A stretch of DNA of 64,000 bases from Candidatus Methanomethylophilaceae archaeon (GCA_944320495.1 CALUHR010000005.1:160001-224000), one strand, 5' to 3'; shown: positions 6,684 to 30,186, counted from the first letter of the stretch. The notes: generated by a model from the sequence alone, not told the origin. Numbers and translations: made by a program.

Positions 6684-8009
6684 ATGAGGTTCTACGGCCG
6701 CGTATCGGAGATCGGCGTCATCCGCTCGCGCACCGACGACGGTCGCGGCGGATGCCGCATCACCGTCGTCACGTCCCCGAGACGCCACGGCCTCACAACC
6801 ACCGTCCTGAAGGCTATGGAGGACAGACACCACGTCTTCCTCCCCGTCACCCGCCAGTCGGACCCCGTCCTCGGCATGGACATGATGCGTCTCGCATCGG
6901 GGCAGGGATTCGAACTCCCCCCGTGCCGTTCCCTCCCGGACGTCCTCCGCGGCCTCATGCGGCTATCCCGGAAGGAACACCTCATCGCCGTCATCGACGA
7001 CATCGACGAGTCCTACTCCCAGTCCCCCGCCGTCCTCTCCGCCCTCGGAGAGGTTTGGAGGGATGAGGCGGCATCCTCGAACCTCGATCTCGTCGTCACC
7101 GGCCACACGGAATGGGTCCTCAGGGAGCTTTTCTCCGAGGAGGGGCCGATGGCCCACCCCGACACCGAATTCGTCCCCATCGGCCCGCTTTCCCTCAAAG
7201 AAATCAAAGCAATCCTCCATGACCACAACCCGGACTACCGTCCCGGAGACCTGATCGCCCTCTACGCCGTCGCGGGCGGCTCCCCCGCCCGCATCGGACT
7301 CCTCATGGACGGGGGATGCACCACAGAGGACTCCATCATCGGATCCGTCTCCGACCCTTCGTCCCCTCTGATCGCGGACATCCGCCTCACCATGGCCGAG
7401 ACCCTCGGCTACCGCTCCCGCGCCTACCGCACGATCCTCCGCTGCATCGCGCGGGGCGTCGACCGCAAGACGGAGATCGAGATGCACACGGGGATCCCGT
7501 CCGGGAAGTACCTGAGCCAGCTGGAGCTGGACTACGGGCTGATCCGCCCCGAGAGGTCCGTGTTCAGCCGCTTCGAGTTCGTCCGCTTCTCCATACCCGA
7601 CCCGTCGGTGCTGTTCCACTTCGCCGTCGTCGAACCCGTCGAGTGGAGGATCGCCATGGGCGACAGGGGCGCCCTGGCCGAGTCCGTCAAGGGGAACATC
7701 CAATCCTGCCTGGACAAGTCTCTGGTGTCCCTCCTGAGGATGGACATGGCCGAGCGGAACCCCGGATGCAGGGTCGGCGGGATGTGGAGCAGGGACGAGG
7801 ACACCGCCGCGGACGTCGTCGTGAGGGACGACGGGAACATGACGGGGAGGTTCTACTCCGTCGTCTCCCCTAAGGAGGAGCTGGAGGGGTCCGTGGAACG
7901 CCTCTCGAGGTTCTACGAGGGATACAGCGTGTCCTTCGGGACACTGGGGCCGGAGGATCTGCTCCATCCCGAGGACGACGTTCGTCGATGGTTTGAACTT
8001 GTGAAGTAA
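6684..8009 (+). CDS. Archaeal ATPase/DUF234-family protein with degenerate catalytic motifs
   Basis: MRFYGRVSEI start, YAVAGGSP, wHTH region, IPDPSVLFHF. Walker A reads SPRRHGLTT (Lys absent). Confidence 0.75.
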   Translation: MRFYGRVSEIGVIRSRTDDGRGGCRITVVTSPRRHGLTTTVLKAMEDRHHVFLPVTRQSDPVLGMDMMRLASGQGFELPPCRSLPDVLRGLMRLSRKEHLIAVIDDIDESYSQSPAVLSALGEVWRDEAASSNLDLVVTGHTEWVLRELFSEEGPMAHPDTEFVPIGPLSLKEIKAILHDHNPDYRPGDLIALYAVAGGSPARIGLLMDGGCTTEDSIIGSVSDPSSPLIADIRLTMAETLGYRSRAYRTILRCIARGVDRKTEIEMHTGIPSGKYLSQLELDYGLIRPERSVFSRFEFVRFSIPDPSVLFHFAVVEPVEWRIAMGDRGALAESVKGNIQSCLDKSLVSLLRMDMAERNPGCRVGGMWSRDEDTAADVVVRDDGNMTGRFYSVVSPKEELEGSVERLSRFYEGYSVSFGTLGPEDLLHPEDDVRRWFELVK

Positions 8010-8028
8010 CGATACGTCCCACCAGTGC

Positions 8029-8094
8029 GATTGCACGCGGGGGGGGGGGTCCGCTGTCTTCGGCTGTCCTCCCCGTCCTCCGTTCGGAGGGAAA
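8029..8094 (+). promoter_or_regulatory. Poly-G (G11) leader with SD-sequestering hairpin, copy 1
   Basis: GATTGCACGC-G11(8039-8049)-TCCGCTGTCTTCGGCTGTCCTCCCCGT-CCTCC gttc GGAGG-gaaa-ATG; near-identical to 10874-10941. Confidence 0.75.
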
Positions 8095-10737
8095 ATGAAC
8101 AAACAGATGATGACAGCCATCGTTCTGATGGCAATACTGTCTCTGACGGGAATTCTGGCCGTCGCTCCAGCGATTGATGCGGAGGATGTTGCTGACAATC
8201 AGGCCCATGACGTCCAGAAAACTGTTCTGGACAGCGAATACCTCGCATCCATCGGGGATTCGATGAACTATTACCGGTTGACTGGGGATTTCATTCTCCA
8301 GGACGATACTCTTGACCTAGGAGGCAAATCGATCCAGTTCCAAGGGGATTGCTCCCTTGACCTTAATGGGAAGAGGCTTCAGGCCAACGGTAACGTGATT
8401 TCGGTTCAGACCAAGGACTCTGCTGGAACCACGTACATATATGACAGTTCAACCGAGGGTAACGGCACGATTTACTCATCGATTACATCAACAAGTAGCG
8501 GTGCCATCGTGAATACGGGGAACCTTGTCATCCAGAGCGGTATCATCGAATCCACTGGAATCACCGTGTTCAACAACAACTATGGCGGAACGATCTCAAT
8601 ATCTGGGGGGACTCTGAAGGGGAGTACTGCACTTGCGATGTGGAAGGGCGATCTCACCGTCAACGGAGGAAACTTCGAAGGAACAAACTGCGGAATCGAG
8701 GTTAGAGGCTGGGGAAGCAACAACGCCTCGGCAACAATTAATGCTGGTACGATCGAGGCACCGGCCGCCATCGTAGTAGAAGGCGGAAGGGGTTCGACAG
8801 AGCTCCTCGTGAATGGCGGCACTATCACCGGCACCAACTACGGAATCTCCGGCAACGGAACCTATGACAATACGGACATTACAATTGCTGGAGGAACAAT
8901 ATCCAGCAGCAACGCACCCGCGATCTATCATCCCCAGAAGGGCAACCTGACCATCAAAGGGAACGACACTACCATCACCGGACCCACGGGAGTGTTGTTC
9001 TGCGGTAGCGGAAGCATCGACATATCCGGAGGTAAGATCACTGGAACTGGTGCATATAACATGGATGATGCAGAATCCAGCGGAAACCTCCAGACAGGTT
9101 CCGCGATTTCTGTGGTTACCCGCGACGGATACTACGAAGATGGTGATACAACCACGCTCACCATTACAGGAGGAGAATTCGTCAGCCAGCAATCCAGCGC
9201 CGTTTCCGAGATGAGATACAGCTACGACGAGACGGCCGGTGCCATCGTCGGTTCCGACAATTCCATGAGGTCCATCGTCTCCAGCATATCCATCGGGGCG
9301 GGAACCTTCAAGGGTGCCGAAGGCAGCGATGCCATCGATATTGACGATGCGGGCGATGAAACGAGCATCAGCGGGGGATCGTTCTCCAGCGATGTGAGGG
9401 ATTACTGCGAACCCGGATTCGCCCCCGCCCAGGACGTGAACGGCAACTACGTAGTCTCCGAGGATCCAGACTATGTTTATGGCGTCACCGCCGCCGAGTT
9501 CCTAGCCACCGGCTCGTACTCCGACGACGGAAAGACCGTCACCTTCTTCCTCGACAGGGACTACAGGATCACCGACGGCACCATCTACTTCGCCGATCTG
9601 GCCGAGCAGGGATACGAGTCCATCTCCATCGCCGGGAACGGACATACGATTTACGGCGGCCTAAGGTTCGATGCGGACTACGAGGACGGCGAGAGCCAGA
9701 GCTATTCCGTGACCATCTCCGACCTCAACCTGGATGGCAAGGAAATCGCTGACTGGGGATACGGCATCGTGATCCAGAACCAGAGCCCCGTCTCCAACCC
9801 CGCCCGCACCATAGACTTCACCATGACCGGCGGATCGGTCAGGAACTTCGATTCCAAGGGCATCTACCTGATCAACGTCCAGTCCGTGTACATCCAGGGT
9901 GCCGAGATCGAGAACTGCGCCACCGTCCCCCACTACCACGACGAGGCCAACGAGGACTTCAAGTACTACGTCAGAGGGGACTACGCGGTGGACATCGACG
10001 TCACCGGCATCGAAGGCGCGGAGATCAGGATCGACGACGTCGCCTTCTCCGGCAAGACCGGAGCGGTCGCCGCCCTCAAGATCGCCCAGCGCGGAGGCGC
10101 TGGCGACAATCCCGACACCTGGGGCGACGCCTCCATCTACGGCGTCATCCTGAACGGGCTGGACTTCTCCGCCTCCGAGGCACCGCGTGACATCATGCTC
10201 GGCAGCGAGCCCAACATCACCGGAGACGACGAGGAGGAGCTCAGGGACTACAACTCCGCCTTCACCGTCCTGCTCTCCGCCAGCGGCGAGACGGTCCTCT
10301 CCGTCTGGGGGGACGACAGGAACGGCGACAGGAACCTGGACGTGACCCTCTCCGACGGGTCCATGCTTGGCACCTCCTGCGAGACCAGCGGCGGGGAGCA
10401 CGGGAAGATCGGCTTGGAGCTTCTCTCCGGCTCCGCGAAGGTCTCCGGAGTGCTGGGGCCGAACATGTCACTGAAGGCCGACGAGGATGCGGTCACGTTC
10501 GAGGACTTCGCCGACGAGAGCGAGGGCGGACTCGAGATCGTCGAGCCCGAGCCGGAGCTCCCGCCCTTCATACCGTTCCCGCCCGAGCAGGGTGGGGACC
10601 CCGTGGAGGTCTACCCGAGCGGGGACAGCGGATCCTCCGACGACAGCGACGACACCCTGAAGGTCGTGGCCGTGGCCGCCGCAGCGGTCATCGCGGCCAT
10701 ACTGGCCATCGTCCTTGCGTCCACATACCGCAAGTGA
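8095..10737 (+). CDS. Adhesin-like surface protein A (beta-helix-like repeats, C-terminal anchor)
   Basis: Signal peptide, repeated I.GG.I.G motifs, C-terminal PPFIPFPPEQGGDPVEVYPS, TM helix, RK. Confidence 0.85.
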   Translation: MNKQMMTAIVLMAILSLTGILAVAPAIDAEDVADNQAHDVQKTVLDSEYLASIGDSMNYYRLTGDFILQDDTLDLGGKSIQFQGDCSLDLNGKRLQANGNVISVQTKDSAGTTYIYDSSTEGNGTIYSSITSTSSGAIVNTGNLVIQSGIIESTGITVFNNNYGGTISISGGTLKGSTALAMWKGDLTVNGGNFEGTNCGIEVRGWGSNNASATINAGTIEAPAAIVVEGGRGSTELLVNGGTITGTNYGISGNGTYDNTDITIAGGTISSSNAPAIYHPQKGNLTIKGNDTTITGPTGVLFCGSGSIDISGGKITGTGAYNMDDAESSGNLQTGSAISVVTRDGYYEDGDTTTLTITGGEFVSQQSSAVSEMRYSYDETAGAIVGSDNSMRSIVSSISIGAGTFKGAEGSDAIDIDDAGDETSISGGSFSSDVRDYCEPGFAPAQDVNGNYVVSEDPDYVYGVTAAEFLATGSYSDDGKTVTFFLDRDYRITDGTIYFADLAEQGYESISIAGNGHTIYGGLRFDADYEDGESQSYSVTISDLNLDGKEIADWGYGIVIQNQSPVSNPARTIDFTMTGGSVRNFDSKGIYLINVQSVYIQGAEIENCATVPHYHDEANEDFKYYVRGDYAVDIDVTGIEGAEIRIDDVAFSGKTGAVAALKIAQRGGAGDNPDTWGDASIYGVILNGLDFSASEAPRDIMLGSEPNITGDDEEELRDYNSAFTVLLSASGETVLSVWGDDRNGDRNLDVTLSDGSMLGTSCETSGGEHGKIGLELLSGSAKVSGVLGPNMSLKADEDAVTFEDFADESEGGLEIVEPEPELPPFIPFPPEQGGDPVEVYPSGDSGSSDDSDDTLKVVAVAAAAVIAAILAIVLASTYRK

Positions 10738-10742
10738 TGACC

Positions 10743-10787
10743 AAACGAGGTCCACGAGACCTCACCTTACCGCCCCTCCGGGGGCGG
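10743..10787 (+). terminator. Double-hairpin 3' element, copy 1
   Basis: AAAC-GAGGTC/GACCTC stem then CTTA-CCGCCCC/GGGGCGG stem; recurs after all three cassettes. Confidence 0.6.
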
Positions 10788-10873
10788 ACATCCTTCACGG
10801 TCTATGATTCTCTGACCATTCACCACAGATACCTTGTTTAACCCATACCGCGATGCGAACCCTCAGTGCTTCA

Positions 10874-10941
10874 GATTGCACGCGGGGGGGGGGGGTCCGC
10901 TGTCTTCGGCTGTCCTCCCCGTCCTCCGTTCGGAGGGATAA
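10874..10941 (+). promoter_or_regulatory. Poly-G (G12) leader, copy 2
   Basis: G12 at 10884-10895; otherwise identical to copy 1 through GGAGGGA. Confidence 0.75.
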
Positions 10942-13900
10942 ATGAATAGCAAGACAGTGGCCATCGTCGCTACAGCGGTGGCCTTCATTCTGGTGCTGTG
11001 CGTAGTGGTACCCGTTTCCGAGGAATCGGAGGCCGCCGACTACAACATCAATGATTCGCAGTCACTGAAAGATAATATCAGCACGATAACCAATGCGATA
11101 GCCTCGCAGTCCGCAACGAGCGCAACATATAACATCAAAATCACCAGCGACATCGAACTGGATTCTCTGAACCTGGATTTCAGTGGAAACAGGACTGAGG
11201 CGAAAAAATACACGATCAACCTCGACATCGGAACCAAAGAGGATCCGAAGACACTGACCCTTGCAGGAACGGAGACGGGGTCGGGGATCACAATCGCCAA
11301 CAACGGCCTCGACAGCATCACGATAAACATCAGATATGGCAACATCATCGACAACCGCACCCCGACGACGGGTCCGATGTCCACAATAACCGTGCAGGGG
11401 CCCGGTGATGGAACCGGCACCACCAATGCCACACTGCTCAACATGAGCGTCTCCTCCACCGTTCCGTCGACCTCCGAATCCAGTTGCATCCTGTCCGTCT
11501 CGGATGGGGCCTCCGTCACGCTCAACAGTGCCGTCCTCAAGACGAACGGGAATGACGGAACCGTAGGGGTATCGATGGAGCCAAACAACGGTTCCAAGAC
11601 CACGACACTGAAGACATACTTCGACACCCTGGTTGAATCGTCCGCCCAGGGAATCCTGACGGAAGTCGGAAAGACATCAATCTCAATGTCCGGCAACACG
11701 CATATCGTCAGCACCGGCTCCAATGCAATACAGCAGGACGGGGGAAAACTCACCGTCAGCAGTGCCAAAGTCGTGGTGGAAGGGGCTGATTACGCCATCT
11801 CCAAGAACGCAGGGGACCTCGCCGTCTCTGGCGGATTAATCAAGGGAACAATCGGTGCCATAGAGAACACCGGTACCAACAAGATCAGCACTACTCTGAG
11901 TCAAAGCGGAGGGGTGTTCAGCAGCGACATATCCGACGCATGCAACATAACCTCGGAATATTCCGTCGTACGGGTCGGAGACAGATTCTACGGATCCTAT
12001 GAGGGAGAAGAACCCGTCGCATCCATTGGAGATGCGAAATACTCGTCTATAAGCTATGTCAACGCCGCGCTCCACAGTTCAGATGCGGATTCGTTCGAAG
12101 TGACCCTGCTTTCCAATACGAGTAGCTCAACATTCACGCCCTTGAATGATGTTACCATCAATCTGAATGGATACAACCTCGCTCTGACCAGAAGCGATGC
12201 TCTCGTGGTGGACGGATTCTCCGTCGAAATCACAGGAACAGGCACTTTGAGTCTTTCCGCCCTCTCTATTCTCGGATCGGACGACCCGAACGCCGAGAAC
12301 TACAGCACGCTGAAGATCGGAGAAAACGTCACCGTCAAAGTGACCAACGCCATCATAATCGGCGAGGCCGACAGACCCCACGGATATGGGGTCGTCGTCG
12401 ATGTGAACGGAAAGATTGACGCTTCCACCGAACAGGGAAGCGAACCCCCTCAGGGAATCACCGTCAACGGAACCCTCAAGGACACCACCGGCAACACCCC
12501 AGTCATCAACGTCAACGGCGAGATTCTCGCGGTCAATAACAGCTACGCAATCTACGCCGCCGGATACGCCACATGGAACATCTACGGCAAGGTATCTGGC
12601 GGAACGGGAATCGAGATCCGCGCCGGAAACGTCAACGTCTACGATGGATCGACGATAACATCAACGGCTGAGGGGTTCACCGAGAAGAAGAACCCCGACG
12701 GCCCGACCATGATCGGTGCGGGAATCGCCGTCAGCCAGCACACCACCAACCTCCCGATCGCCCTGAACATCGAGGGCGGGGACATCTCCGGACCCTACGC
12801 GCTCTACGAGAAGGACCTCGAGGACGACACCGGAACGGAAGACATAGGCATGGAAGTCACCGGAGGTACATTCACCGGAACCACAGCATCCGTGTCCAGC
12901 GAGAACGTCAAGGACTTCCTCGCGGGAGGAACGTTCCTCAAGCAGAATGGCAACGAGACGCCCGTGGCGGACACCTCTCTGAACGAATCCGACCTCCTGG
13001 CGGGGGACCGCACCATCGACGAGGACGGAGGCGTCACCCTCGCGAACGCCGTCGCGAAGGTCGGCTCCGTGGAATACGGCACCATCGCCGACGCCGTCGC
13101 CGCGGCCAAGAACGGCCAGATTGTCACCCTGCTGAAGGATACTGCCGAATCCATAACCATTTCTGGCAAGGACATCACCCTCGACCTCGGGACCTACACG
13201 CTCACCAACACCGCCAATGAGCACACGATCACCGTCGAGTCCGGCGCGACCCTCACCATCCAGGGGAACGGTACCGTCGACAACATCTCCCATGCCAAGG
13301 CGGCCGTCTCCAACGAGGAGGGCGGCACCGTGACCCTGGAGGGCGGAAGCTACACCCGCAGCAAAGAGGCGGGGATGTCTAGCAACGACAACGGAGGCAA
13401 CTCCTACTACAACATCCTGAACCAGGGCACCATGACCATCAAGGCGGGGGTCACCGTATCCCAGAAGGGGGTCTACTCCAGCCTCATAGACAACGGCTGG
13501 TTCGATACCGACGGAATGACCGGCGACCATGAGGCCAAACTCACGATCGAGGGCGGAACGTTCACGGGCGGCAAGTACACGGTCAAGAACGACGACTACG
13601 GCACCGTCGAGATCTATGGCGGCACGTTCACCAACACGGCGCAGGCGACCGTCCTCAATTGGAACGAGATGACGATCGACGGAGGCACGTTCGACGGAAC
13701 TGGTGCTGGAGCGGTCATCGTGAACGGCCATTACGCTGACAGCAGTGTCGGTAGCCTGACCGTCAAGAAGGGACAGTTCAACGGCACAGTCGGAATCAAG
13801 GACGGCGGCTACGGTACTGGGACGACCATCCTCGTAGAGGGAGGTGATTTCGACGTCAGCGGCGACGTGTTCAGCTTCACCGGCGGCGAGCCCGACGTCT

Positions 13901-14652
13901 CCGTGTCCGGAGGTACCTTCAACAAGACCTTCGACAGCAAGTACATGGCACCCGGAGTCACCATGGCCCAGAACCCCGACGGCACCTACGGCGTGGTCGA
14001 ATCCATAACCATCACGTTCGTCGACATCGACGGAACCACCCTCAAGCAGGTAGACATACCCAAGGGATCCTCGGTCCCCGCCGAGGAGATCCCCGCGTTC
14101 GGCACCGCCCCCGAGAACTACGCGTACCACTGGAACAGCGAGGACGTGGTCGACGTCTATCCGGACATCGATGTGTTCTATACGGACACGACCCTCACCG
14201 CGGCCCTTCACATAGAGCCCTTCGAGATAACCGTCGAGGTCTCCGGAAACACCGCGACTGCGGTGTTCGATGTGCCCGTGGATGGCTGCACCGTCAACGG
14301 ATACCTCTGGTTCTACGTGAACGGGGAATCGTTCGAGGATGTCGGATCCGACGCCTCCGTCACCCTTGACAGGGACGGACTGTACTATGTCCAGGTGGAG
14401 GTGGAGGATTCCGAAGGCATCGTCGGCTACGGTATAGGCTACACAGAGTACACCGCCGGATCGGAGCTTCCGCCCTTCATCCCCTTCCCGCCCGAGCAGG
14501 GAGGGGACCCGGTCGAGGTGTATCCGAGCGGAGACAGTAGTTCGTCGTCCGACGATGGAGACGGCACCCTGAAGGTCGTGGCCGTTGCGGCCGCGGCCGT
14601 CATCGCGGCCATTCTCGCCATCGTCCTCGCGTCCACCTACCGCAAGGACTGA
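10942..14652 (+). CDS. Adhesin-like surface protein B
   Basis: Signal peptide (SEESEAA), beta-helix-like repeats, VAKVGSVEYGTIADAVAAA module, same C-terminal motif and TM. Confidence 0.85.
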   Translation: MNSKTVAIVATAVAFILVLCVVVPVSEESEAADYNINDSQSLKDNISTITNAIASQSATSATYNIKITSDIELDSLNLDFSGNRTEAKKYTINLDIGTKEDPKTLTLAGTETGSGITIANNGLDSITINIRYGNIIDNRTPTTGPMSTITVQGPGDGTGTTNATLLNMSVSSTVPSTSESSCILSVSDGASVTLNSAVLKTNGNDGTVGVSMEPNNGSKTTTLKTYFDTLVESSAQGILTEVGKTSISMSGNTHIVSTGSNAIQQDGGKLTVSSAKVVVEGADYAISKNAGDLAVSGGLIKGTIGAIENTGTNKISTTLSQSGGVFSSDISDACNITSEYSVVRVGDRFYGSYEGEEPVASIGDAKYSSISYVNAALHSSDADSFEVTLLSNTSSSTFTPLNDVTINLNGYNLALTRSDALVVDGFSVEITGTGTLSLSALSILGSDDPNAENYSTLKIGENVTVKVTNAIIIGEADRPHGYGVVVDVNGKIDASTEQGSEPPQGITVNGTLKDTTGNTPVINVNGEILAVNNSYAIYAAGYATWNIYGKVSGGTGIEIRAGNVNVYDGSTITSTAEGFTEKKNPDGPTMIGAGIAVSQHTTNLPIALNIEGGDISGPYALYEKDLEDDTGTEDIGMEVTGGTFTGTTASVSSENVKDFLAGGTFLKQNGNETPVADTSLNESDLLAGDRTIDEDGGVTLANAVAKVGSVEYGTIADAVAAAKNGQIVTLLKDTAESITISGKDITLDLGTYTLTNTANEHTITVESGATLTIQGNGTVDNISHAKAAVSNEEGGTVTLEGGSYTRSKEAGMSSNDNGGNSYYNILNQGTMTIKAGVTVSQKGVYSSLIDNGWFDTDGMTGDHEAKLTIEGGTFTGGKYTVKNDDYGTVEIYGGTFTNTAQATVLNWNEMTIDGGTFDGTGAGAVIVNGHYADSSVGSLTVKKGQFNGTVGIKDGGYGTGTTILVEGGDFDVSGDVFSFTGGEPDVSVSGGTFNKTFDSKYMAPGVTMAQNPDGTYGVVESITITFVDIDGTTLKQVDIPKGSSVPAEEIPAFGTAPENYAYHWNSEDVVDVYPDIDVFYTDTTLTAALHIEPFEITVEVSGNTATAVFDVPVDGCTVNGYLWFYVNGESFEDVGSDASVTLDRDGLYYVQVEVEDSEGIVGYGIGYTEYTAGSELPPFIPFPPEQGGDPVEVYPSGDSSSSSDDGDGTLKVVAVAAAAVIAAILAIVLASTYRKD

Positions 14653-14657
14653 TGGAT

Positions 14658-14700
14658 AAACGAGGTTCTCCGAACCTCCCTTACCGCCCCTTCGGGGCGG
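14658..14700 (+). terminator. Double-hairpin 3' element, copy 2
   Basis: AAAC-GAGGTT/AACCTC then CTTA-CCGCCCC ttc GGGGCGG. Confidence 0.6.
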
Positions 14701-14754
14701 TTTCTCACCATACCCTCTTAAGACCCCATAGCACGATTCTCCCCCCGCATGAAA

Positions 14755-14824
14755 ATGCACGCGGGGGGGGGGCGACCGATTCTGTCTTCCCTCCTCGTCC
14801 TCCGCATAAAAAGGAGGGAAACGA
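14755..14824 (+). promoter_or_regulatory. Poly-G (G10) leader, copy 3 (diverged)
   Basis: TGCACGC-G10(14763-14772)...TTCCCTCCTCGT-CCTCC gcataaaaa GGAGG-gaaacga-ATG; stem kept, loop changed. Confidence 0.7.
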
Positions 14825-16333
14825 ATGAACAGAGCAGCTTTTGCGGCCATTCTCATAGCCGCCATCACCGCCCTGTCCATGATGGTATCCATGCCATCGA
14901 TGGAGGCCGAGGTTACGGACACCTGGGACGGTACCGCCGACATATCATGGTATGACGGCATGAAAACCGAGTATCATATCGACACGGCGGAGAAGCTTGC
15001 CGGACTGGCACAGATCGTGAATGGGGATCCAGCCGAAGAGTTGGAAGGGATCACGGTATACCTCGATGCCGACCTAGACATATCCGGGCATGAATGGGAT
15101 GCCATCGGACAGGGGAACAACGCATCTGGATTCTTCGGAGGGATATTCGACGGACAGGGGCACGAGGTCAGGGGACTGACCCAGCACGAGGCTGAAAGCA
15201 TCGGCCTGTTCTCCGTTATAGGGATGAGCGGTGCCGTCAGGAACCTCGGCGTAACGGAAGCCGACATCGATTACACCGGGAATCGCCTGGATGCCGGCAT
15301 CCTCGCGTCGTGGGTCGACGGAGGGGTGATCGAGGATTGCTACTCGACTGGTTCGATGTACATCGGAATGAACATGCTGATCGGAGGCCTCATCGGCCAG
15401 TGCACCGCGGGTGCGAGAGTCATAGGATGCTACTCCTCTGCCGATGTGACCGTAAACACGCCTGGGGAGGATATGACGGTTGGCGGCGTCATCGGACAAT
15501 GGGAGAATTCCACCGATGCGTCCCTGATCAAGGACTGCTACTTCTCAGGAAGCATACATGAGATAGGAGCCGGAGGCGCCGCGGTGGGCGGGATACTGGG
15601 GGCCAACTTCGATTTCTCCGGTCAGCCCGGCGTAGACATCGAGGGATGCTTCGTGACCGCGACAGACCTCGTAAGTTCTAACATGGACAACATCCTCTGG
15701 ATCGGGGCGTTAGTGGACGGCAACGTCTCGAATTGCTACTGGCCATCGGAGCCGGAAGAGCGTATGACCGTCGTCAAGATGGTGGTGGACTGGGATGCAG
15801 GTACCGCATCGGCCGATCCGGATTTCGATCAGAGCACCTGCGGCAGTGCCGTCACCGACTTCTCGACGGACGAGTTCCTCCAGACCCTCAATGGCGGAGG
15901 GGACACATGGATCGCGGGTCCGGACGGACATCCCATCCATTCCTGGGACGCCGTCAACCACCCCGCGGACTACTCCGAGGTGGAGGAGGCAGTCGCCATC
16001 GCTGGAGGGATGGATAGCTCCGACTACTCGAACTGGGAAACCGTTCAGTCCGCCATCGACGCCGTCGACTATGGCCTCACGTTCGACAGGCAGGCGGAGG
16101 TCGACGCCATGGCCCAGGTAATCCTGGATTCGATTGACGGTCTGGAACACGCTCTGCCTCCATTCATACCGTTCCCGCCCGAGCAGGGAGGGGACCCCGT
16201 AGAGGTGTATCCCAGCCAGGACAGCGATTCATCCGATGAGGATGGATCCATGAAGGTAGTCGCAGTCGCGGCCGCCGCTGTGATTGCGGCGATTCTCGCA
16301 ATCGTGCTGGCGTCCACATATCGTCACGACTAA
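14825..16333 (+). CDS. Adhesin-like surface protein C (GLUG-like repeats plus FIVAR-like module)
   Basis: WDGTADISWY...TAEKLAGLA, GGLIGQ/GGVIGQ/GGILG repeats, ADYSEVEEAV...QAEVDAMA helical module, shared C-terminal motif. Confidence 0.8.
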   Translation: MNRAAFAAILIAAITALSMMVSMPSMEAEVTDTWDGTADISWYDGMKTEYHIDTAEKLAGLAQIVNGDPAEELEGITVYLDADLDISGHEWDAIGQGNNASGFFGGIFDGQGHEVRGLTQHEAESIGLFSVIGMSGAVRNLGVTEADIDYTGNRLDAGILASWVDGGVIEDCYSTGSMYIGMNMLIGGLIGQCTAGARVIGCYSSADVTVNTPGEDMTVGGVIGQWENSTDASLIKDCYFSGSIHEIGAGGAAVGGILGANFDFSGQPGVDIEGCFVTATDLVSSNMDNILWIGALVDGNVSNCYWPSEPEERMTVVKMVVDWDAGTASADPDFDQSTCGSAVTDFSTDEFLQTLNGGGDTWIAGPDGHPIHSWDAVNHPADYSEVEEAVAIAGGMDSSDYSNWETVQSAIDAVDYGLTFDRQAEVDAMAQVILDSIDGLEHALPPFIPFPPEQGGDPVEVYPSQDSDSSDEDGSMKVVAVAAAAVIAAILAIVLASTYRHD

Positions 16334-25323: not shown

Positions 25324-26645
25324 ACATGACTAAAACCCGCGACATCAGCGGGAGATCGGCCGCCATCGGCATCGTCGTGCTGATGGCGGTCGCCGCCCTG
25401 GCGATCGTGCCGATGTGCTCGGACGATTCCGAGGCCGTGACGGATCTCGGAGTTTACACCGGCGGAACCAATCTGAGCAGTAAGGACGCCGCATATTCTG
25501 GAATCGAGGTTGACATCTCCAGAATCAATGGGATGACACTCTTCGTCTCAATGGGCGCCCAAATCAAAGTGACATATGACAACTACGTCGACAAATATGA
25601 TGATAATTCGAATGGATTGGGAATGGGATGGAGCATCGGATCTGGCACAGTTTCCGAATACGGAAGTTGCAGATGGGAGGATGCAGCAATCAATTCCTTC
25701 AAACTCATCTGCCTCGATCCGAACAACATTACGAATCTGGGACCATACACTGGCGGAGAGAATCTGAGTTTTGAGAAAGCTGCATATTCTGGCGTAAACG
25801 CCAGTGTCACAGATGATGCTTTTCCAAACACTGGTGCGGGTCGTCCAAATGATATCTATGTGTTGCCTGGGGCCCATATACGCATTGTTGCAGAGGACAC
25901 GGGCCCTTCTTTCACATACTACCCGAATTGGTTCATCTCGTCTACCAATGGGAGAGGGTTGGAGGTGATTGATGGGACAGTCCCAGGCTACGGCGAATGG
26001 TTGGTGATGTGGGACGGTATCGTTCACATCGACATAGGGCTAGTGTGTCTGGGCCCCAGCCACACCGTAACCTTCAACTCGAACGGAGGTTCCGATGTCC
26101 CCAACCAGGTGACCGACTCCGACGGATACGTCATCGCCCCCGAGGACCCCGTCCTCGCGGGCCATGTGTTCGCGGGATGGTTCACCGACGACGGAGAGCC
26201 CTTCGACTTCTCCCAGCCCGTGACATCGGACATCACCCTCCACGCCCAATGGGTCGACGAGCTCGTGTTCACCACGACTCCCACATCCAACGGCACGGTC
26301 CAGTCCGTCCCGATGATGGAGGGCATGATCGTCTGCGACGCCACCCAATCTTCCGATTACACGTCCATCCTCTGGGACCTGGGGGACGGGACGTTCTCCA
26401 CCAACACATACGTCACCCACAGCTACGCCTCTCCGGGGCAGTACACGGTGACGCTCACGGTCTTCAACGAACATGGGAGTGATACCACGGAATTCACTGT
26501 GAACGTGCCCGAGGATGCCGGCAGGGGGGGGGGGGCAGTGACCTCTTGCCCTACGTTCTCGTCGCCATCCTGGCACTCGTATCGGGAGGTCTGGTCCTCA
26601 GACGTCTCCTGTGAACTGATGACAAATGAGGGGGTGTTCCAGTGA
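25320..26645 (+). CDS. Adhesin (DLGxY-repeat head, InlB B-repeat, PKD); anchor out of frame at G12 tract
   Basis: Alternate frame after 26535 encodes GSDLLPYVLVAILALVSGGLVLRRLL* (TGA 26612-26614). Confidence 0.8.
   Translation: MNMTKTRDISGRSAAIGIVVLMAVAALAIVPMCSDDSEAVTDLGVYTGGTNLSSKDAAYSGIEVDISRINGMTLFVSMGAQIKVTYDNYVDKYDDNSNGLGMGWSIGSGTVSEYGSCRWEDAAINSFKLICLDPNNITNLGPYTGGENLSFEKAAYSGVNASVTDDAFPNTGAGRPNDIYVLPGAHIRIVAEDTGPSFTYYPNWFISSTNGRGLEVIDGTVPGYGEWLVMWDGIVHIDIGLVCLGPSHTVTFNSNGGSDVPNQVTDSDGYVIAPEDPVLAGHVFAGWFTDDGEPFDFSQPVTSDITLHAQWVDELVFTTTPTSNGTVQSVPMMEGMIVCDATQSSDYTSILWDLGDGTFSTNTYVTHSYASPGQYTVTLTVFNEHGSDTTEFTVNVPEDAGRGGGAVTSCPTFSSPSWHSYREVWSSDVSCELMTNEGVFQ
26524..26535 (+). repeat. G12 tract before anchor (one G short of in-frame)
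   Basis: gca-G12-cagtgacctc; 10 or 13 G restores the anchor. Confidence 0.9.
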
Positions 26646-27964
26646 ACACCCTCTCGAACCTCAAAACCATAGCCGTGGCCGCAATCGCGATCGTCTCGGC
26701 GCTGATGTTCGTACCGATGATGTCGGACGATTCGGATGCGGTCACGGATCTCGGAGTTTACGCCCAAGAGGGGGAGAATGTCAGTTCTCCGACGGCGCTC
26801 TACTCCGGCATCAATGTATGGACAACCGTAGCATTCGTTGACAACAACGAGGTTTACTACGTCTCCCCCGGATCGGAGATCACTTTCGTCATGAACGACA
26901 TCGGGGGACTCACCATCGATTCGAAGGACAAACTCGGATTGAAGGAGGATTCGAGTGTTGGAATCTATGGCGGAATCAGCGGGACGATCACCGGCCAGGG
27001 GTATGTGGAGATCACAGCCGAGGGGGAGTTTTTCTCCAAGTTCTCGTTCTACGTCGCCTGCATCGACCCGAACGGCAGTTCCGATCTCGGAACATACGAT
27101 GGCGGACCCAACATGAGTTCGCCAGAGAAGACGTATTCCAAGATTGAAATACGTGGCTATACCGACTTTTGGAATTTGATCGACGGTTCGAATCTCGTCG
27201 TCTACGTCTCTGATGGGTCGGAGGTTTGGGTCCAGGGTGCCATAATGAGCACGAATCTGGAACGCAACGATCTGAATCTCTCCATTGCTGACATGGAGAT
27301 ATTGTATGGGACGGTCGAAGGCTATGGAACCACGATTTTCAGATCCGAGGCATCACTGTTCACGGTTGTGTGTATGGCCCCTACTCACACCGTCGTCTTT
27401 GACTCCGAAGGCGGTTCCAGTGTCCCCAATCAGGTAACCGACACAGACGGCATCGTCACCGCCCCCGAGGACCCCGTTCTCTCAGGATACATCTTCGGCG
27501 GCTGGTACACCGAGGACAACATCCCGTTCGACTTCTCCCAACCCATATCAGAGGACATAACGCTCCACGCCAAATGGATCGAGACACTCGTCTTCACCAC
27601 GGTTCCAACATCCAGCGGTACCGTCAAGGCCGTCCCGATGATGGCGGGAACCATCGTATGCGACGCATCCCAATCCAGCGACTACACGTCGATCCTCTGG
27701 GATCTCGGGGACGGGACCACATCCACCAACACGTATGTGACACACTACTACAGCCAGCCCGGGACCTATGAGGTAACCCTCACCGTCTTCAACGAACACG
27801 GAACGGATGTCACTACATACACTGTCGAGGTTCCCGAGAGCTCGACCGGGGGGGGGGGCATGACAACCTTCTCCTCTACATCGCAGTCGGACTGCTCGCA
27901 ACCATTCTCATCGCAGTCGTCGCATTGCGGTTGCTCTGACCACTCCATGGGGGCGGTCGCGTGA
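26642..27964 (+). CDS. Adhesin paralog; anchor out of frame at G11 tract
   Basis: Alternate frame encodes HDNLLLYIAVGLLATILIAVVALRLL* (TGA 27937-27939). Confidence 0.8.
   Translation: MNTLSNLKTIAVAAIAIVSALMFVPMMSDDSDAVTDLGVYAQEGENVSSPTALYSGINVWTTVAFVDNNEVYYVSPGSEITFVMNDIGGLTIDSKDKLGLKEDSSVGIYGGISGTITGQGYVEITAEGEFFSKFSFYVACIDPNGSSDLGTYDGGPNMSSPEKTYSKIEIRGYTDFWNLIDGSNLVVYVSDGSEVWVQGAIMSTNLERNDLNLSIADMEILYGTVEGYGTTIFRSEASLFTVVCMAPTHTVVFDSEGGSSVPNQVTDTDGIVTAPEDPVLSGYIFGGWYTEDNIPFDFSQPISEDITLHAKWIETLVFTTVPTSSGTVKAVPMMAGTIVCDASQSSDYTSILWDLGDGTTSTNTYVTHYYSQPGTYEVTLTVFNEHGTDVTTYTVEVPESSTGGGGMTTFSSTSQSDCSQPFSSQSSHCGCSDHSMGAVA
27848..27858 (+). repeat. G11 tract before anchor (one G short)
   Basis: acc-G11-catgacaac; 9 or 12 G restores the anchor. 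Confidence 0.9.
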
Positions 27965-29247
27965 CCGCCCCTGTAAACCTCAAGACGGCCTTCGTGACGA
28001 TTCTCGCTTTGGCATCCGCGATGGCGTTCGTCCCATTGATTGCGGACGATTCCGACGCGGTTACCGATCTCGGGACGTACGCTGGCGGGGAGAATCTCAG
28101 CACCCCAGACGCCGCCTATTCTGGGATAGTTATAAACAGCGTGGGAACAACGCTTCCCAGCAACAAGGTGTTCTACGTAACCATTGGTGCGGACGTGAGT
28201 CTGTCCCTTGGAGATGAGAATCAGAGTTTCGATTGTGAGAATAACGACCTCGGCCTGTACAATGACGACTTGTACGGCGGTGTCGATGGAACCGTCTCCG
28301 GGTACGGATGTGCGGAGATTTTTGCGGATTACAGTTACAGCAGATTCTACATCCTGATTGTCAGTCTCGATCCGAATGGAGTGACCGATCTGGGATCGTA
28401 CGACGGTTCGGTGAACGTCAGCAGCCCCACCGCCACATATTCTGGCATTACGAAGCACGGGGACTGGTTCGAGACGATTTACGTCTCGCTTGGTGCGGTC
28501 ATAGACGTCAGGGAGGAGAATGAACCGCTTGTTCTCTCCCTGTCGAACGATGACATGGGCATCTATGTCTGGACGGACAACAGCATCGACCAGCTCGGAG
28601 GCACGGTTTCAGCCTATGGTTCAACCGATGTGATGATCTCCTACTCTACGGGCGGTTACAGCTATACCATAACATGTCTAGAACCCATCAAAACATACAC
28701 CGTCATCTTTGATTCCAACGGCGGTTCCACAGTGGACAACTTCGTCACCGATGCCGACGGACTCGTCAAGGAACCCGACGACCCGGTCCTGGCGAACCAC
28801 ATCTTCGCAGGCTGGTACACGGACGATGGCGAACCCTTCGACTTCTCGCAGCCGATCTCCGAGGACATAACCCTCTATGCCCAGTGGGTGGACGAGCTCG
28901 TCTTCACCACCATTCCCACATCGGATGGCATCGTCAAGGCTGTTTCCAGTCTCGCAGGCACGATCCTCTGCGACGCCACGCTGTCCTCCGACTACACCTC
29001 CCTTCTCTGGGATCTCGGTGACGGAACGACATCGACCAACACCTACGTCACACACTACTATGGCGAACCGGGCCGGTACAAGGTGACTCTAACTGTTTTT
29101 AACGAACACGGGAGTGATACCACGGAATTCACAGTCAATGTGCCCGAAGAGTCCGTCGGGGGGGGGGGCAATGAACTCCTTCTCTACGCCGCAGTCGGAC
29201 TGCTGGCACTCGTCGCGGGAGGTCTGGTCGTTAGAAGGTTCCTCTGA
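27961..29247 (+). CDS. Adhesin paralog; anchor in frame
   Basis: Ends GGGGNELLLYAAVGLLALVAGGLVVRRFL*. Confidence 0.85.
   Translation: MTAPVNLKTAFVTILALASAMAFVPLIADDSDAVTDLGTYAGGENLSTPDAAYSGIVINSVGTTLPSNKVFYVTIGADVSLSLGDENQSFDCENNDLGLYNDDLYGGVDGTVSGYGCAEIFADYSYSRFYILIVSLDPNGVTDLGSYDGSVNVSSPTATYSGITKHGDWFETIYVSLGAVIDVREENEPLVLSLSNDDMGIYVWTDNSIDQLGGTVSAYGSTDVMISYSTGGYSYTITCLEPIKTYTVIFDSNGGSTVDNFVTDADGLVKEPDDPVLANHIFAGWYTDDGEPFDFSQPISEDITLYAQWVDELVFTTIPTSDGIVKAVSSLAGTILCDATLSSDYTSLLWDLGDGTTSTNTYVTHYYGEPGRYKVTLTVFNEHGSDTTEFTVNVPEESVGGGGNELLLYAAVGLLALVAGGLVVRRFL
29158..29168 (+). repeat. G11 tract before anchor (in frame)
   Basis: gtc-G11-caatgaactc. Confidence 0.9.
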
Positions 29248-29274: not shown

Positions 29275-30186
29275 ATGACCGCCTCTACAAACCTAAACAA
29301 GGGGATGTGCGGAATCGCCATCCTGGCTATCATCATTTCATCGTTGTCTGGGATGATTATGGTTTTCTCAGAAGATGGAGAAGCCGCTACGAGAGGTGGT
29401 TCTGGAACCCCCGAAGATCCATACTGGGGAACATTCGGTGGTCTGACAATTTATCTTCAGTGTAATCAGCACGATGGTGCCTATTTCCTCGTCGGCACCG
29501 TGTTCAGGTATGGTGAGCCATCTAGTGGTGAGGGATTCTATGACATATCTCCTGGATTTGGCCTAATCAGTGATGACTATACCATCGTAGGCACTGTGAC
29601 AAAGTCTGGGCAGTTCGATGCCCACCTCAAGAATCCAGCACAGGCCGATGAAATAACTCCAGCACACTTCACGATTTATTTCATAGACGAACCAGTCACA
29701 CCAACATATACAGTCGTCTTCAACTCCAACGGCGGATCGGACGTCCCCAACGCCACCACCGATGCCAGCGGCCTTGTCAAGGAACCCGACGATCCAGTCC
29801 TTGCGGATCACGTCTTCGCGGGCTGGTACACCAGCGACGGCGAGCCCTTTGACTTCTCCCAGCCCGTTACGGAGGACATAACCCTCCATGCACAGTGGGT
29901 CGACGAACTCGTGTTCACGACCATACCTACATCCGATGGCACCGTAAAGGCCGTGTCCGGCCTTGCAGGTACCATCCTCTGCGACGCAACCCTGTCCTCG
30001 GACTACACATCCCTTCTCTGGGACCTGGGCGACGGCACCTTCTCCGACAACACCTATGTCACGCACTACTACTCCGAACCCGGAACGTACACCGTGACCC
30101 TCACCGCGTACAATAACTACGGCACCGACGTCACGAAATTTACTGTCGAAGTGCCCGAGAATCTCGCTGGGGGGGGGGGGCAATGA
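29275..30186 (+). CDS. Adhesin paralog; truncated right after G12 tract
   Basis: Reads GGGGQ*; anchor frame encodes NDSILLWVPVILLAAILAAVVITRLL* (TGA 30260-30262). Confidence 0.8.
   Translation: MTASTNLNKGMCGIAILAIIISSLSGMIMVFSEDGEAATRGGSGTPEDPYWGTFGGLTIYLQCNQHDGAYFLVGTVFRYGEPSSGEGFYDISPGFGLISDDYTIVGTVTKSGQFDAHLKNPAQADEITPAHFTIYFIDEPVTPTYTVVFNSNGGSDVPNATTDASGLVKEPDDPVLADHVFAGWYTSDGEPFDFSQPVTEDITLHAQWVDELVFTTIPTSDGTVKAVSGLAGTILCDATLSSDYTSLLWDLGDGTFSDNTYVTHYYSEPGTYTVTLTAYNNYGTDVTKFTVEVPENLAGGGGQ
30169..30180 (+). repeat. G12 tract before anchor (one G extra)
   Basis: gct-G12-caatgacagc; 11 or 14 G restores the anchor. Confidence 0.9.

Follow-up and report, generated by a model that had tools for sequence, protein, structure and literature searches.

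The window analysed here is a 64,000-nt stretch, read on one strand, of a metagenome-assembled genome (MAG) named Candidatus Methanomethylophilaceae archaeon (GCA_944320495.1, CALUHR010000005.1:160001-224000). It contains three adjacent genes on the plus strand, probably encoding adhesin-like surface proteins, each preceded by a leader with a long G tract, and these leaders are the subject of the present analysis. A pattern search for TGCACGC followed by poly-G returned exactly three sites in the window (8032-8049, 10877-10895 and 14756-14772) and none in 100 shuffles. Together with direct reading of the sequence, the search bears out a preliminary description of this DNA, according to which the three leaders (copies 1 to 3) consist of TGCACGC with G11, G12 and G10, a pyrimidine-rich stretch and a CCUCC-loop-GGAGG hairpin that buries the Shine-Dalgarno (SD) sequence just before the ATG.

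The leaders are compact (about 85 nt) and share one anatomy. In copy 1, a small 5' hairpin (P0; GUGC-gauu-GCAC, 8025-8036) and a GC linker (8037-8038) precede the G11 tract (8039-8049), which is followed by a spacer and an upstream pyrimidine block (8050-8076), delimited by folds, RNAalifold and pyrimidine statistics, and by the SD hairpin (P2; 8077-8090), made up of the anti-SD CCUCC (8077-8081), the loop GUUC and the SD GGAGG (8086-8090) and seen both in the sequence and by RNAalifold. The gene itself, a long open reading frame (ORF) starting at ATG 8095, encodes 880 aa (8095-10737). Copy 2 has its P0 (GUGC-uucagauu-GCAC, from the sequence and minimum free energy (MFE) folds) at 10866-10881, its G12 tract at 10884-10895 and, identical to copy 1, its spacer, pyrimidine block and SD hairpin at 10896-10936 (anti-SD 10923-10927, loop GUUC, SD 10932-10936), upstream of a 1236-aa ORF (ATG 10942; 10942-14652). 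Copy 3 carries P0 (GCAU-gaaa-AUGC, found by hairpin search) at 14747-14758, the G10 tract at 14763-14772, and the spacer and SD hairpin at 14773-14817 (anti-SD 14799-14803, SD 14813-14817; sequence and folds), with a pyrimidine block of 12 nt (14785-14796) followed by the purine G14797; its 502-aa ORF (ATG 14825; 14825-16333) contains a GLUG motif. The earlier statement that copies 1 and 2 are identical apart from the number of G holds from 10 nt 5' of the tract to the SD, but farther upstream the two diverge, and copy 2 has one additional T between SD and ATG. In copy 3 the stem is indeed kept and the loop altered, with 9 nt (GCAUAAAAA) in place of the GUUC of copies 1 and 2. The TGCACGC element is the 3' arm of the P0 hairpin (GUGC...GCAC) plus the GC linker and is specific to the copies of the host genome. 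It was rejected as a protein-binding motif because it is not conserved outside that genome, where the equivalent position is a hairpin whose sequence differs from copy to copy.

The MAG comprises 1.77 Mb at 61.6% GC and is 90.6% complete. It encodes TBP and McrA, and no rRNA gene, small-subunit rRNA included, was found in it; the host is an archaeon and a gut methanogen. The relatives in which leaders occur carry the names of Methanomassiliicoccales or Ca. Methanomethylophilaceae MAGs, including UBA71. The search for more such leaders proposed in the preliminary description revealed two further copies on the same contig, both G11, giving five in the host genome. The five leader proteins have a signal peptide, an ectodomain rich in G, S, T and D, a Ser/Asp-rich linker and a near-identical C-terminal transmembrane (TM) anchor, and their ectodomains resemble beta-helix and pectate-lyase-like proteins, so that adhesin-like surface protein appears to be a fair label.

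Homologous leaders were detected by pattern search in other species of the genus. A strict regular expression missed most copies of the family, and we used a covariance model instead: RNAalifold on 17 leaders provided the alignment for the model, and the matches to the model provided an alignment of 62 sequences. The model matched about 70 copies in 23 of the 62 genomes of the genus; outside the genus it had a single match, in a genome belonging to a second genus of the family, and none in 87 sampled genomes from six other families of the order. The ORF downstream begins with a signal-peptide-like N-terminus in 58 of 59 cases. A search of Rfam over positions 7800-15000 returned only PhotoRC-I, a chance match in the 3' region of the first leader gene (16.9 bits, the cut-off being 45; E 0.98).

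The most distinctive part of the leader is the pyrimidine block. With the leaders aligned on the 3' end of the anti-SD, pyrimidines make up about 100% of positions -1 to -6 and 78-100% of positions -8 to -18, decaying beyond; in between, position -7 frequently holds a purine (G8075 in copy 1). The pyrimidine run up to the anti-SD, with one purine allowed, has a median of 16 nt compared to 3 nt in 515 control SD-led genes, and a run of at least 12 nt occurs in 84% of leaders versus 0.2% of control genes. The length of the block (about 11 nt) equals the modal length of the tract. A G can pair with C as well as with U, so that freedom from purines is what one would expect of a segment that pairs with the G tract; we refer to the block as a ruler. 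In agreement with this pairing, RNAalifold on the 17 leaders yields two abutting helices, P1, which joins the G tract to the pyrimidine tract by 10 bp (in copy 1 the pyrimidine block is its 3' arm), and P2, which joins anti-SD and SD. Changes in P1 are limited to GC-GU exchanges plus a compensatory GC to AU change at the closing pair. In the 62-sequence alignment 89.2% of cells are paired and covariation lies above that of all 500 shuffles; for P2 the paired fraction is 87%, with loop sequences that vary. An SD hairpin at real gene starts of the host genome is found almost exclusively with these leaders.

Whether tract length can act at the RNA level depends on where transcription starts. With an archaeal host (TBP, McrA), promoters are to be read as archaeal B recognition element (BRE)/TATA motifs, and a sigma-70 reading of TTGCAC-N17 was dropped on the same grounds. 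A 16-nt BRE/TATA position weight matrix (PWM) was derived from the upstream regions of the 45 tRNA genes of the host genome, where 22-24 nt lie between the end of the motif and the mature 5' end. Predicted BRE/TATA elements are found 40 nt upstream of the tract of copy 2 (GATACCTTGTTTAACC, 10828-10843, PWM 8.2, within the highest 0.07% of the genome background) and 37 nt upstream of that of copy 3 (ATACCCTCTTAAGACC, 14710-14725, PWM 7.6, within the highest 0.09%), measured from the end of the element. Across the family the best match ends 30-49 nt 5' of the tract in 35 of 58 leaders, and the mean maximum score is 7.3 in this interval, 3.6 at 0-20 nt, and 0.8 and -0.2 in control windows. With promoter motifs at this distance the tract is predicted to be transcribed, the transcription start site (TSS) lying about 10-25 nt, in our preferred reading about 15-20 nt, upstream of the tract and the tract itself at about +12 to +25. 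The P0 hairpin, whose stem sequence is different in each copy, ends 0-7 nt 5' of the tract; its best stem averages 4.67 bp, whereas shuffles average 3.95 bp and none of 200 shuffled sets attained the observed mean, which would fit an RNA element at the transcript's 5' end.

Leader tracts in the window (G10-G12) and across the family (G8-G14) are long enough to slip, for which about 8 or more residues are needed. The distribution is G11 (24 leaders), G12 (14), G10 (14), G9 (3), G13 (3), G8 (1) and G14 (1), plus two decayed tracts. Lengths differ among near-identical paralogues and orthologues: 11 versus 12 in copies 1 and 2, and 11/11/6 and 12/12/13 in other sets. Scans of metagenome contigs for the exact leaders and for the family pattern, and of genome contigs for the exact leaders, gave no match. 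Homopolymer lengths in the host genome are bimodal, with some 21 G/C tracts of at least 9 and very few of 7-8. Searches of the MAG, complete to 90.6%, for MutS (PF00488) and NucS (PF01939) domains found neither, so that mismatch repair is apparently wanting, as it is in H. pylori and C. jejuni. The second use of G10-12 tracts in the window, also announced in the preliminary description, is confirmed by four tracts of G11-12 within coding sequences (26524-26535, 27848-27858, 29158-29168 and 30169-30180), which sit in consecutive surface-protein genes just 5' of the C-terminal TM segments and are frameshift-type switches.

Folding with the standard nearest-neighbour model makes an effect of tract length on the SD thermodynamically plausible. 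The mean cost of opening the SD drops from 7.9 kcal/mol with short tracts to 2.2 kcal/mol with long ones, with the half-transition at G10-14, the steepest change between G11 and G13, and, as the commonest state, a natural length one below the threshold. In these duplex-model folds the tract extends into the anti-SD at G12-14, forming a structure exclusive of P2. The effect is specific to G, as A or U tracts have none, and is insensitive to the assumed 5' end. The behaviour can be followed pair by pair in one leader (L010), where a UCGA/UCGA helix clamps the tract at its 3' end and each extra G adds one more P1 pair into the anti-SD; its P2 has 8 bp at G8, 5 bp at G12 and none at G14. When the ruler block is replaced by A's or shuffled, the steep drop between G11 and G13 (6.2 to 3.3 kcal/mol) becomes a shallow slope, and the block thus appears to be a sink that sets the threshold. 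This revises the pairing first suggested, in which the tract was to free the SD by pairing with the C-rich arm of the hairpin: the tract takes the separate pyrimidine block first, and only surplus G's reach the anti-SD. At their present lengths copy 2 (G12, 1.3 kcal/mol) is predicted to be open, copy 1 (G11, 5.1 kcal/mol) intermediate and copy 3 (G10, 9.0 kcal/mol) closed.

Our judgement, held with restrained confidence, is that this is a conserved leader with a pyrimidine ruler, in which tract length probably sets translation initiation of surface-protein genes. We infer that the tract is transcribed, that it slips, and that its length acts on translation, with longer tracts being the ON state. 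The proposed mechanism is as follows. The leader would consist of P0, of P1, formed by the G tract and the ruler of about 11 nt, and of P2, abutting P1, in which CCUCC sequesters GGAGG. P1 would tolerate C and U opposite G, so that purines alone are barred from the ruler block. Replication slippage would alter the length of the tract; G's up to the length of the ruler would be absorbed by P1, and surplus G's would carry P1 past the single purine into the anti-SD, shortening P2 pair by pair and exposing the SD. Tract length would thereby become a heritable, reversible and graded switch of translation initiation, and if it does set initiation, each cell would express a different subset of the adhesin-like proteins. 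The slippage-tuned translational control of adhesins anticipated in the preliminary description accordingly gains computational support from promoter position, conserved helices and SD-opening cost, but its direction depends on the folding model.

Several observations weigh against this proposal. The 62-sequence alignment was fitted to the model, and paralogues are not independent samples. Promoter scores are weak for copy 1 and for locus A, and in 7 of 58 leaders the best promoter-like match lies less than 10 nt from the tract. Copy 1 may be transcribed by read-through from the upstream gene: a 441-aa ORF without Pfam match (6684-8009) stops 22 nt short of the conserved leader part that starts at 8030, and as copy 1 is without a good promoter motif of its own, co-transcription with this ORF is possible. 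The enrichment of P0 is modest. Tuning locus by locus was tried and rejected, as natural tract length is uncorrelated with a leader's own threshold (rho -0.05). Most importantly, with the G-quadruplex (G4) option of ViennaRNA, tracts of at least 11 G adopt a two-tetrad G4 (assigned -18.0 kcal/mol), the SD is not exposed, and the switch seen in the duplex model disappears. The pairing of the tract is worth a median of 15.6 kcal/mol, and set against -18.0 for the G4 this makes the sign of the switch dependent on a parameter whose value is poorly known.

A G-quadruplex switch is accordingly the strongest rival, although we consider it unlikely. Here a tract of at least 11 G, either as RNA or as non-template DNA strand, would fold back upon itself and be withdrawn from pairing; 11 G is the minimum for a two-tetrad intramolecular G4 and would place a length threshold at 11, with an opposite or different sign, in that long tracts would keep the SD closed or block ribosome or polymerase. 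The sequestration of the SD from G11 upward in G4-aware folding agrees with this, as do natural lengths that straddle 11 (G10, G11 and G12 in 14, 24 and 14 leaders) and the likelihood that self-folding is kinetically favoured for a tract made before its pyrimidine partner. A G4 alone, however, leaves unexplained both the purine-free block of about 11 nt abutting the anti-SD and the covarying closing pair of P1, and it must compete with the duplex pairing quantified above. The tracts within coding sequences of the host genome have the same lengths as the leader tracts, so the length distribution probably reflects mutation dynamics. Two-tetrad RNA G4s are, moreover, much weaker than the value that ViennaRNA assigns to them.

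Phase variation at the level of transcription is a somewhat less probable rival. The tract would alter TATA-TSS spacing, promoter escape, pausing or reiterative transcription, and the RNA helices would be secondary. Promoter-spacer tracts are a classic bacterial mechanism, the 7 leaders with a promoter-like match close to the tract could be read in this way, and other G tracts of the host genome directly follow TATA-like boxes. These form a third class of tracts, G11-12 in length, found in the host genome (G000) at C13:38064-38075(-), C1:82856-82867(-), C11:15930-15940(+), C13:434257-434268(+) and C5:40615-40625(-); in one example a box of PWM 12.9 ends 6 nt before the tract. With the TATA-like box directly before it, a tract of this class lies between TATA and predicted TSS. 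At C11:15930 the sequence catATG comes after the tract, so that a change in tract length would move the TSS with respect to the start codon of an mRNA that is nearly leaderless. At the leaders, by contrast, promoter motifs cluster about 40 nt upstream and place the tract within the predicted transcript, no A/T-rich element adjoins the tract in the copies of the host genome, and the pyrimidine ruler and SD hairpin would go unexplained.

It is improbable, to a still greater degree, that the tract length tunes binding of a partner in trans, either a C/U-rich small RNA (sRNA) or a G-tract-binding protein. The H. pylori tlpB/RepG pair is a direct precedent (PMC8295292), and any tract exceeding the ruler in length would be accessible; but a genome scan for a C-rich sRNA singled out no candidate among 1,022 pyrimidine runs, which are mostly antisense of coding sequences, while every leader has kept a partner in cis at exactly the right place. 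Least probable of all is a leader in which length plays no role, a constitutive structured 5' untranslated region (UTR) acting, for example, on mRNA stability and inherited by expansion of the gene family, the G run being a mere helix arm: all copies do belong to one expanding surface-protein gene family of one genus, so that shared ancestry explains part of the conservation, but the architecture is kept despite wide sequence divergence, a pure homopolymer of 10-13, the most mutable of helix arms, is retained in about 58 of 60 copies, its length differs between near-identical copies, and the same tracts serve as frameshift switches in coding regions of the host genome.

Some further features of the leader genes were noted. 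Directly after the stop codons of leader genes 1 and 2 lies a pair of hairpins (about 10741-10788 and 14657-14701), GAGGTc...GAcCTC followed by CCGCCCC-loop-GGGGCGG, which is conserved between the two genes and may be a 3'-end or terminator element common to the gene family. In copy 2 only, the spacer after the tract (10896-10905, CCGCUGUCUU) has its complement in codons 4-7 of the ORF (10952-10961, AAGACAGUGG); this long-range helix appears as an alternative in several MFE folds and is possibly due to chance. A U-run attenuator in the spacer was considered and rejected as a family feature, since runs of T4-T7 are present in many relatives and absent from the copies of the host genome. In some orthologous leaders the tract is decayed or interrupted (G6, G5AG4, G8AGGGA) while the pyrimidine tract and SD hairpin are retained (L095:201-284 and L094:201-281 in genome G117, L059:1501-1577 in genome G127), and these may be 'locked' variants.

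Phase variation is seen as a strategy of bacteria that live in association with a host, and to our knowledge almost nothing is known about surface variation in gut archaea; likewise, we know of few cis-RNA examples in the regulation of archaeal translation initiation. The leaders suggest that one genus of gut methanogens possesses a full contingency-locus system which, at the leaders, would act on translation initiation. The other tracts agree with this, being frameshift switches at membrane anchors and tracts between TATA box and TSS. If this holds true, a clonal methanogen population would display a combinatorial surface repertoire in the animal gut. The proposal makes a quantitative prediction, in that output should depend on how many G's the tract has, the threshold being fixed by how long the pyrimidine block is, for which about 70 natural variants exist, and the leader could possibly be useful as a tunable expression part for methanogens. 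That it is the first cis-acting, slippage-driven translational rheostat in Archaea, with a ruler that counts G's at many adhesin-like genes in parallel, is a tentative claim about which we are nearly evenly divided, leaning slightly to caution. We found no report of such leaders in archaea in the literature; homopolymeric tracts in prokaryotes, archaea among them, are mentioned in general surveys (PMC2831843), and a generic reference to archaeal contingency loci occurs in one preprint.

Among known systems, the contingency loci of Campylobacter, Neisseria and Helicobacter are G/C tracts of 8-13 at genes for surface structures, with many loci per genome. These bacteria are host-associated, have small genomes and are without mismatch repair, and their tracts act by frameshift or promoter spacing. 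The present leaders differ from them in being archaeal, in lying upstream of the start codon and in probably acting at the RNA level, although the frameshift type is also found in the window. The leader of H. influenzae hmw1A resembles ours in that a transcribed repeat upstream of an adhesin gene forms an arm of a long 5'-UTR hairpin and sets the adhesin level; its repeat has a unit of 7 nt, RNase III cleavage is involved, and more repeats give less protein (PMC12721329), whereas the repeat here is a homopolymer and the predicted output is SD sequestration. In H. pylori tlpB, a variable G6-G16 repeat in the 5'-UTR pairs with a C/U-rich sequence, and a surface- or envelope-related gene is thereby controlled post-transcriptionally according to repeat length, in a graded manner and not as an on/off switch. 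The partner of that repeat, however, is the loop of the trans-acting sRNA RepG, and the repeat is far from the ribosome-binding site (RBS) (PMC8295292), whereas the C/U-rich partner proposed here is in cis and contiguous with the anti-SD. A further likeness is to M. tuberculosis espR, in which insertion into a 5'-UTR poly-G relieves occlusion of the RBS, as verified by reporters: the extra G lengthens a G/C hairpin and reduces RBS pairing, so that a structural change in cis raises translation while the mRNA level is unchanged (PMC11898584). espR is a single bacterial locus; its 7-8 G lie at the extreme 5' end, some 140 nt away from the start codon, and it has neither a dedicated anti-SD hairpin nor a pyrimidine ruler (PMC11898584). 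The leaders described here are archaeal, occur in about 70 copies in 23 genomes and are compact, with abutting helices. The principle is therefore precedented in bacteria; the present element differs in being archaeal, multi-copy and compact, with a cis partner contiguous with a dedicated anti-SD.

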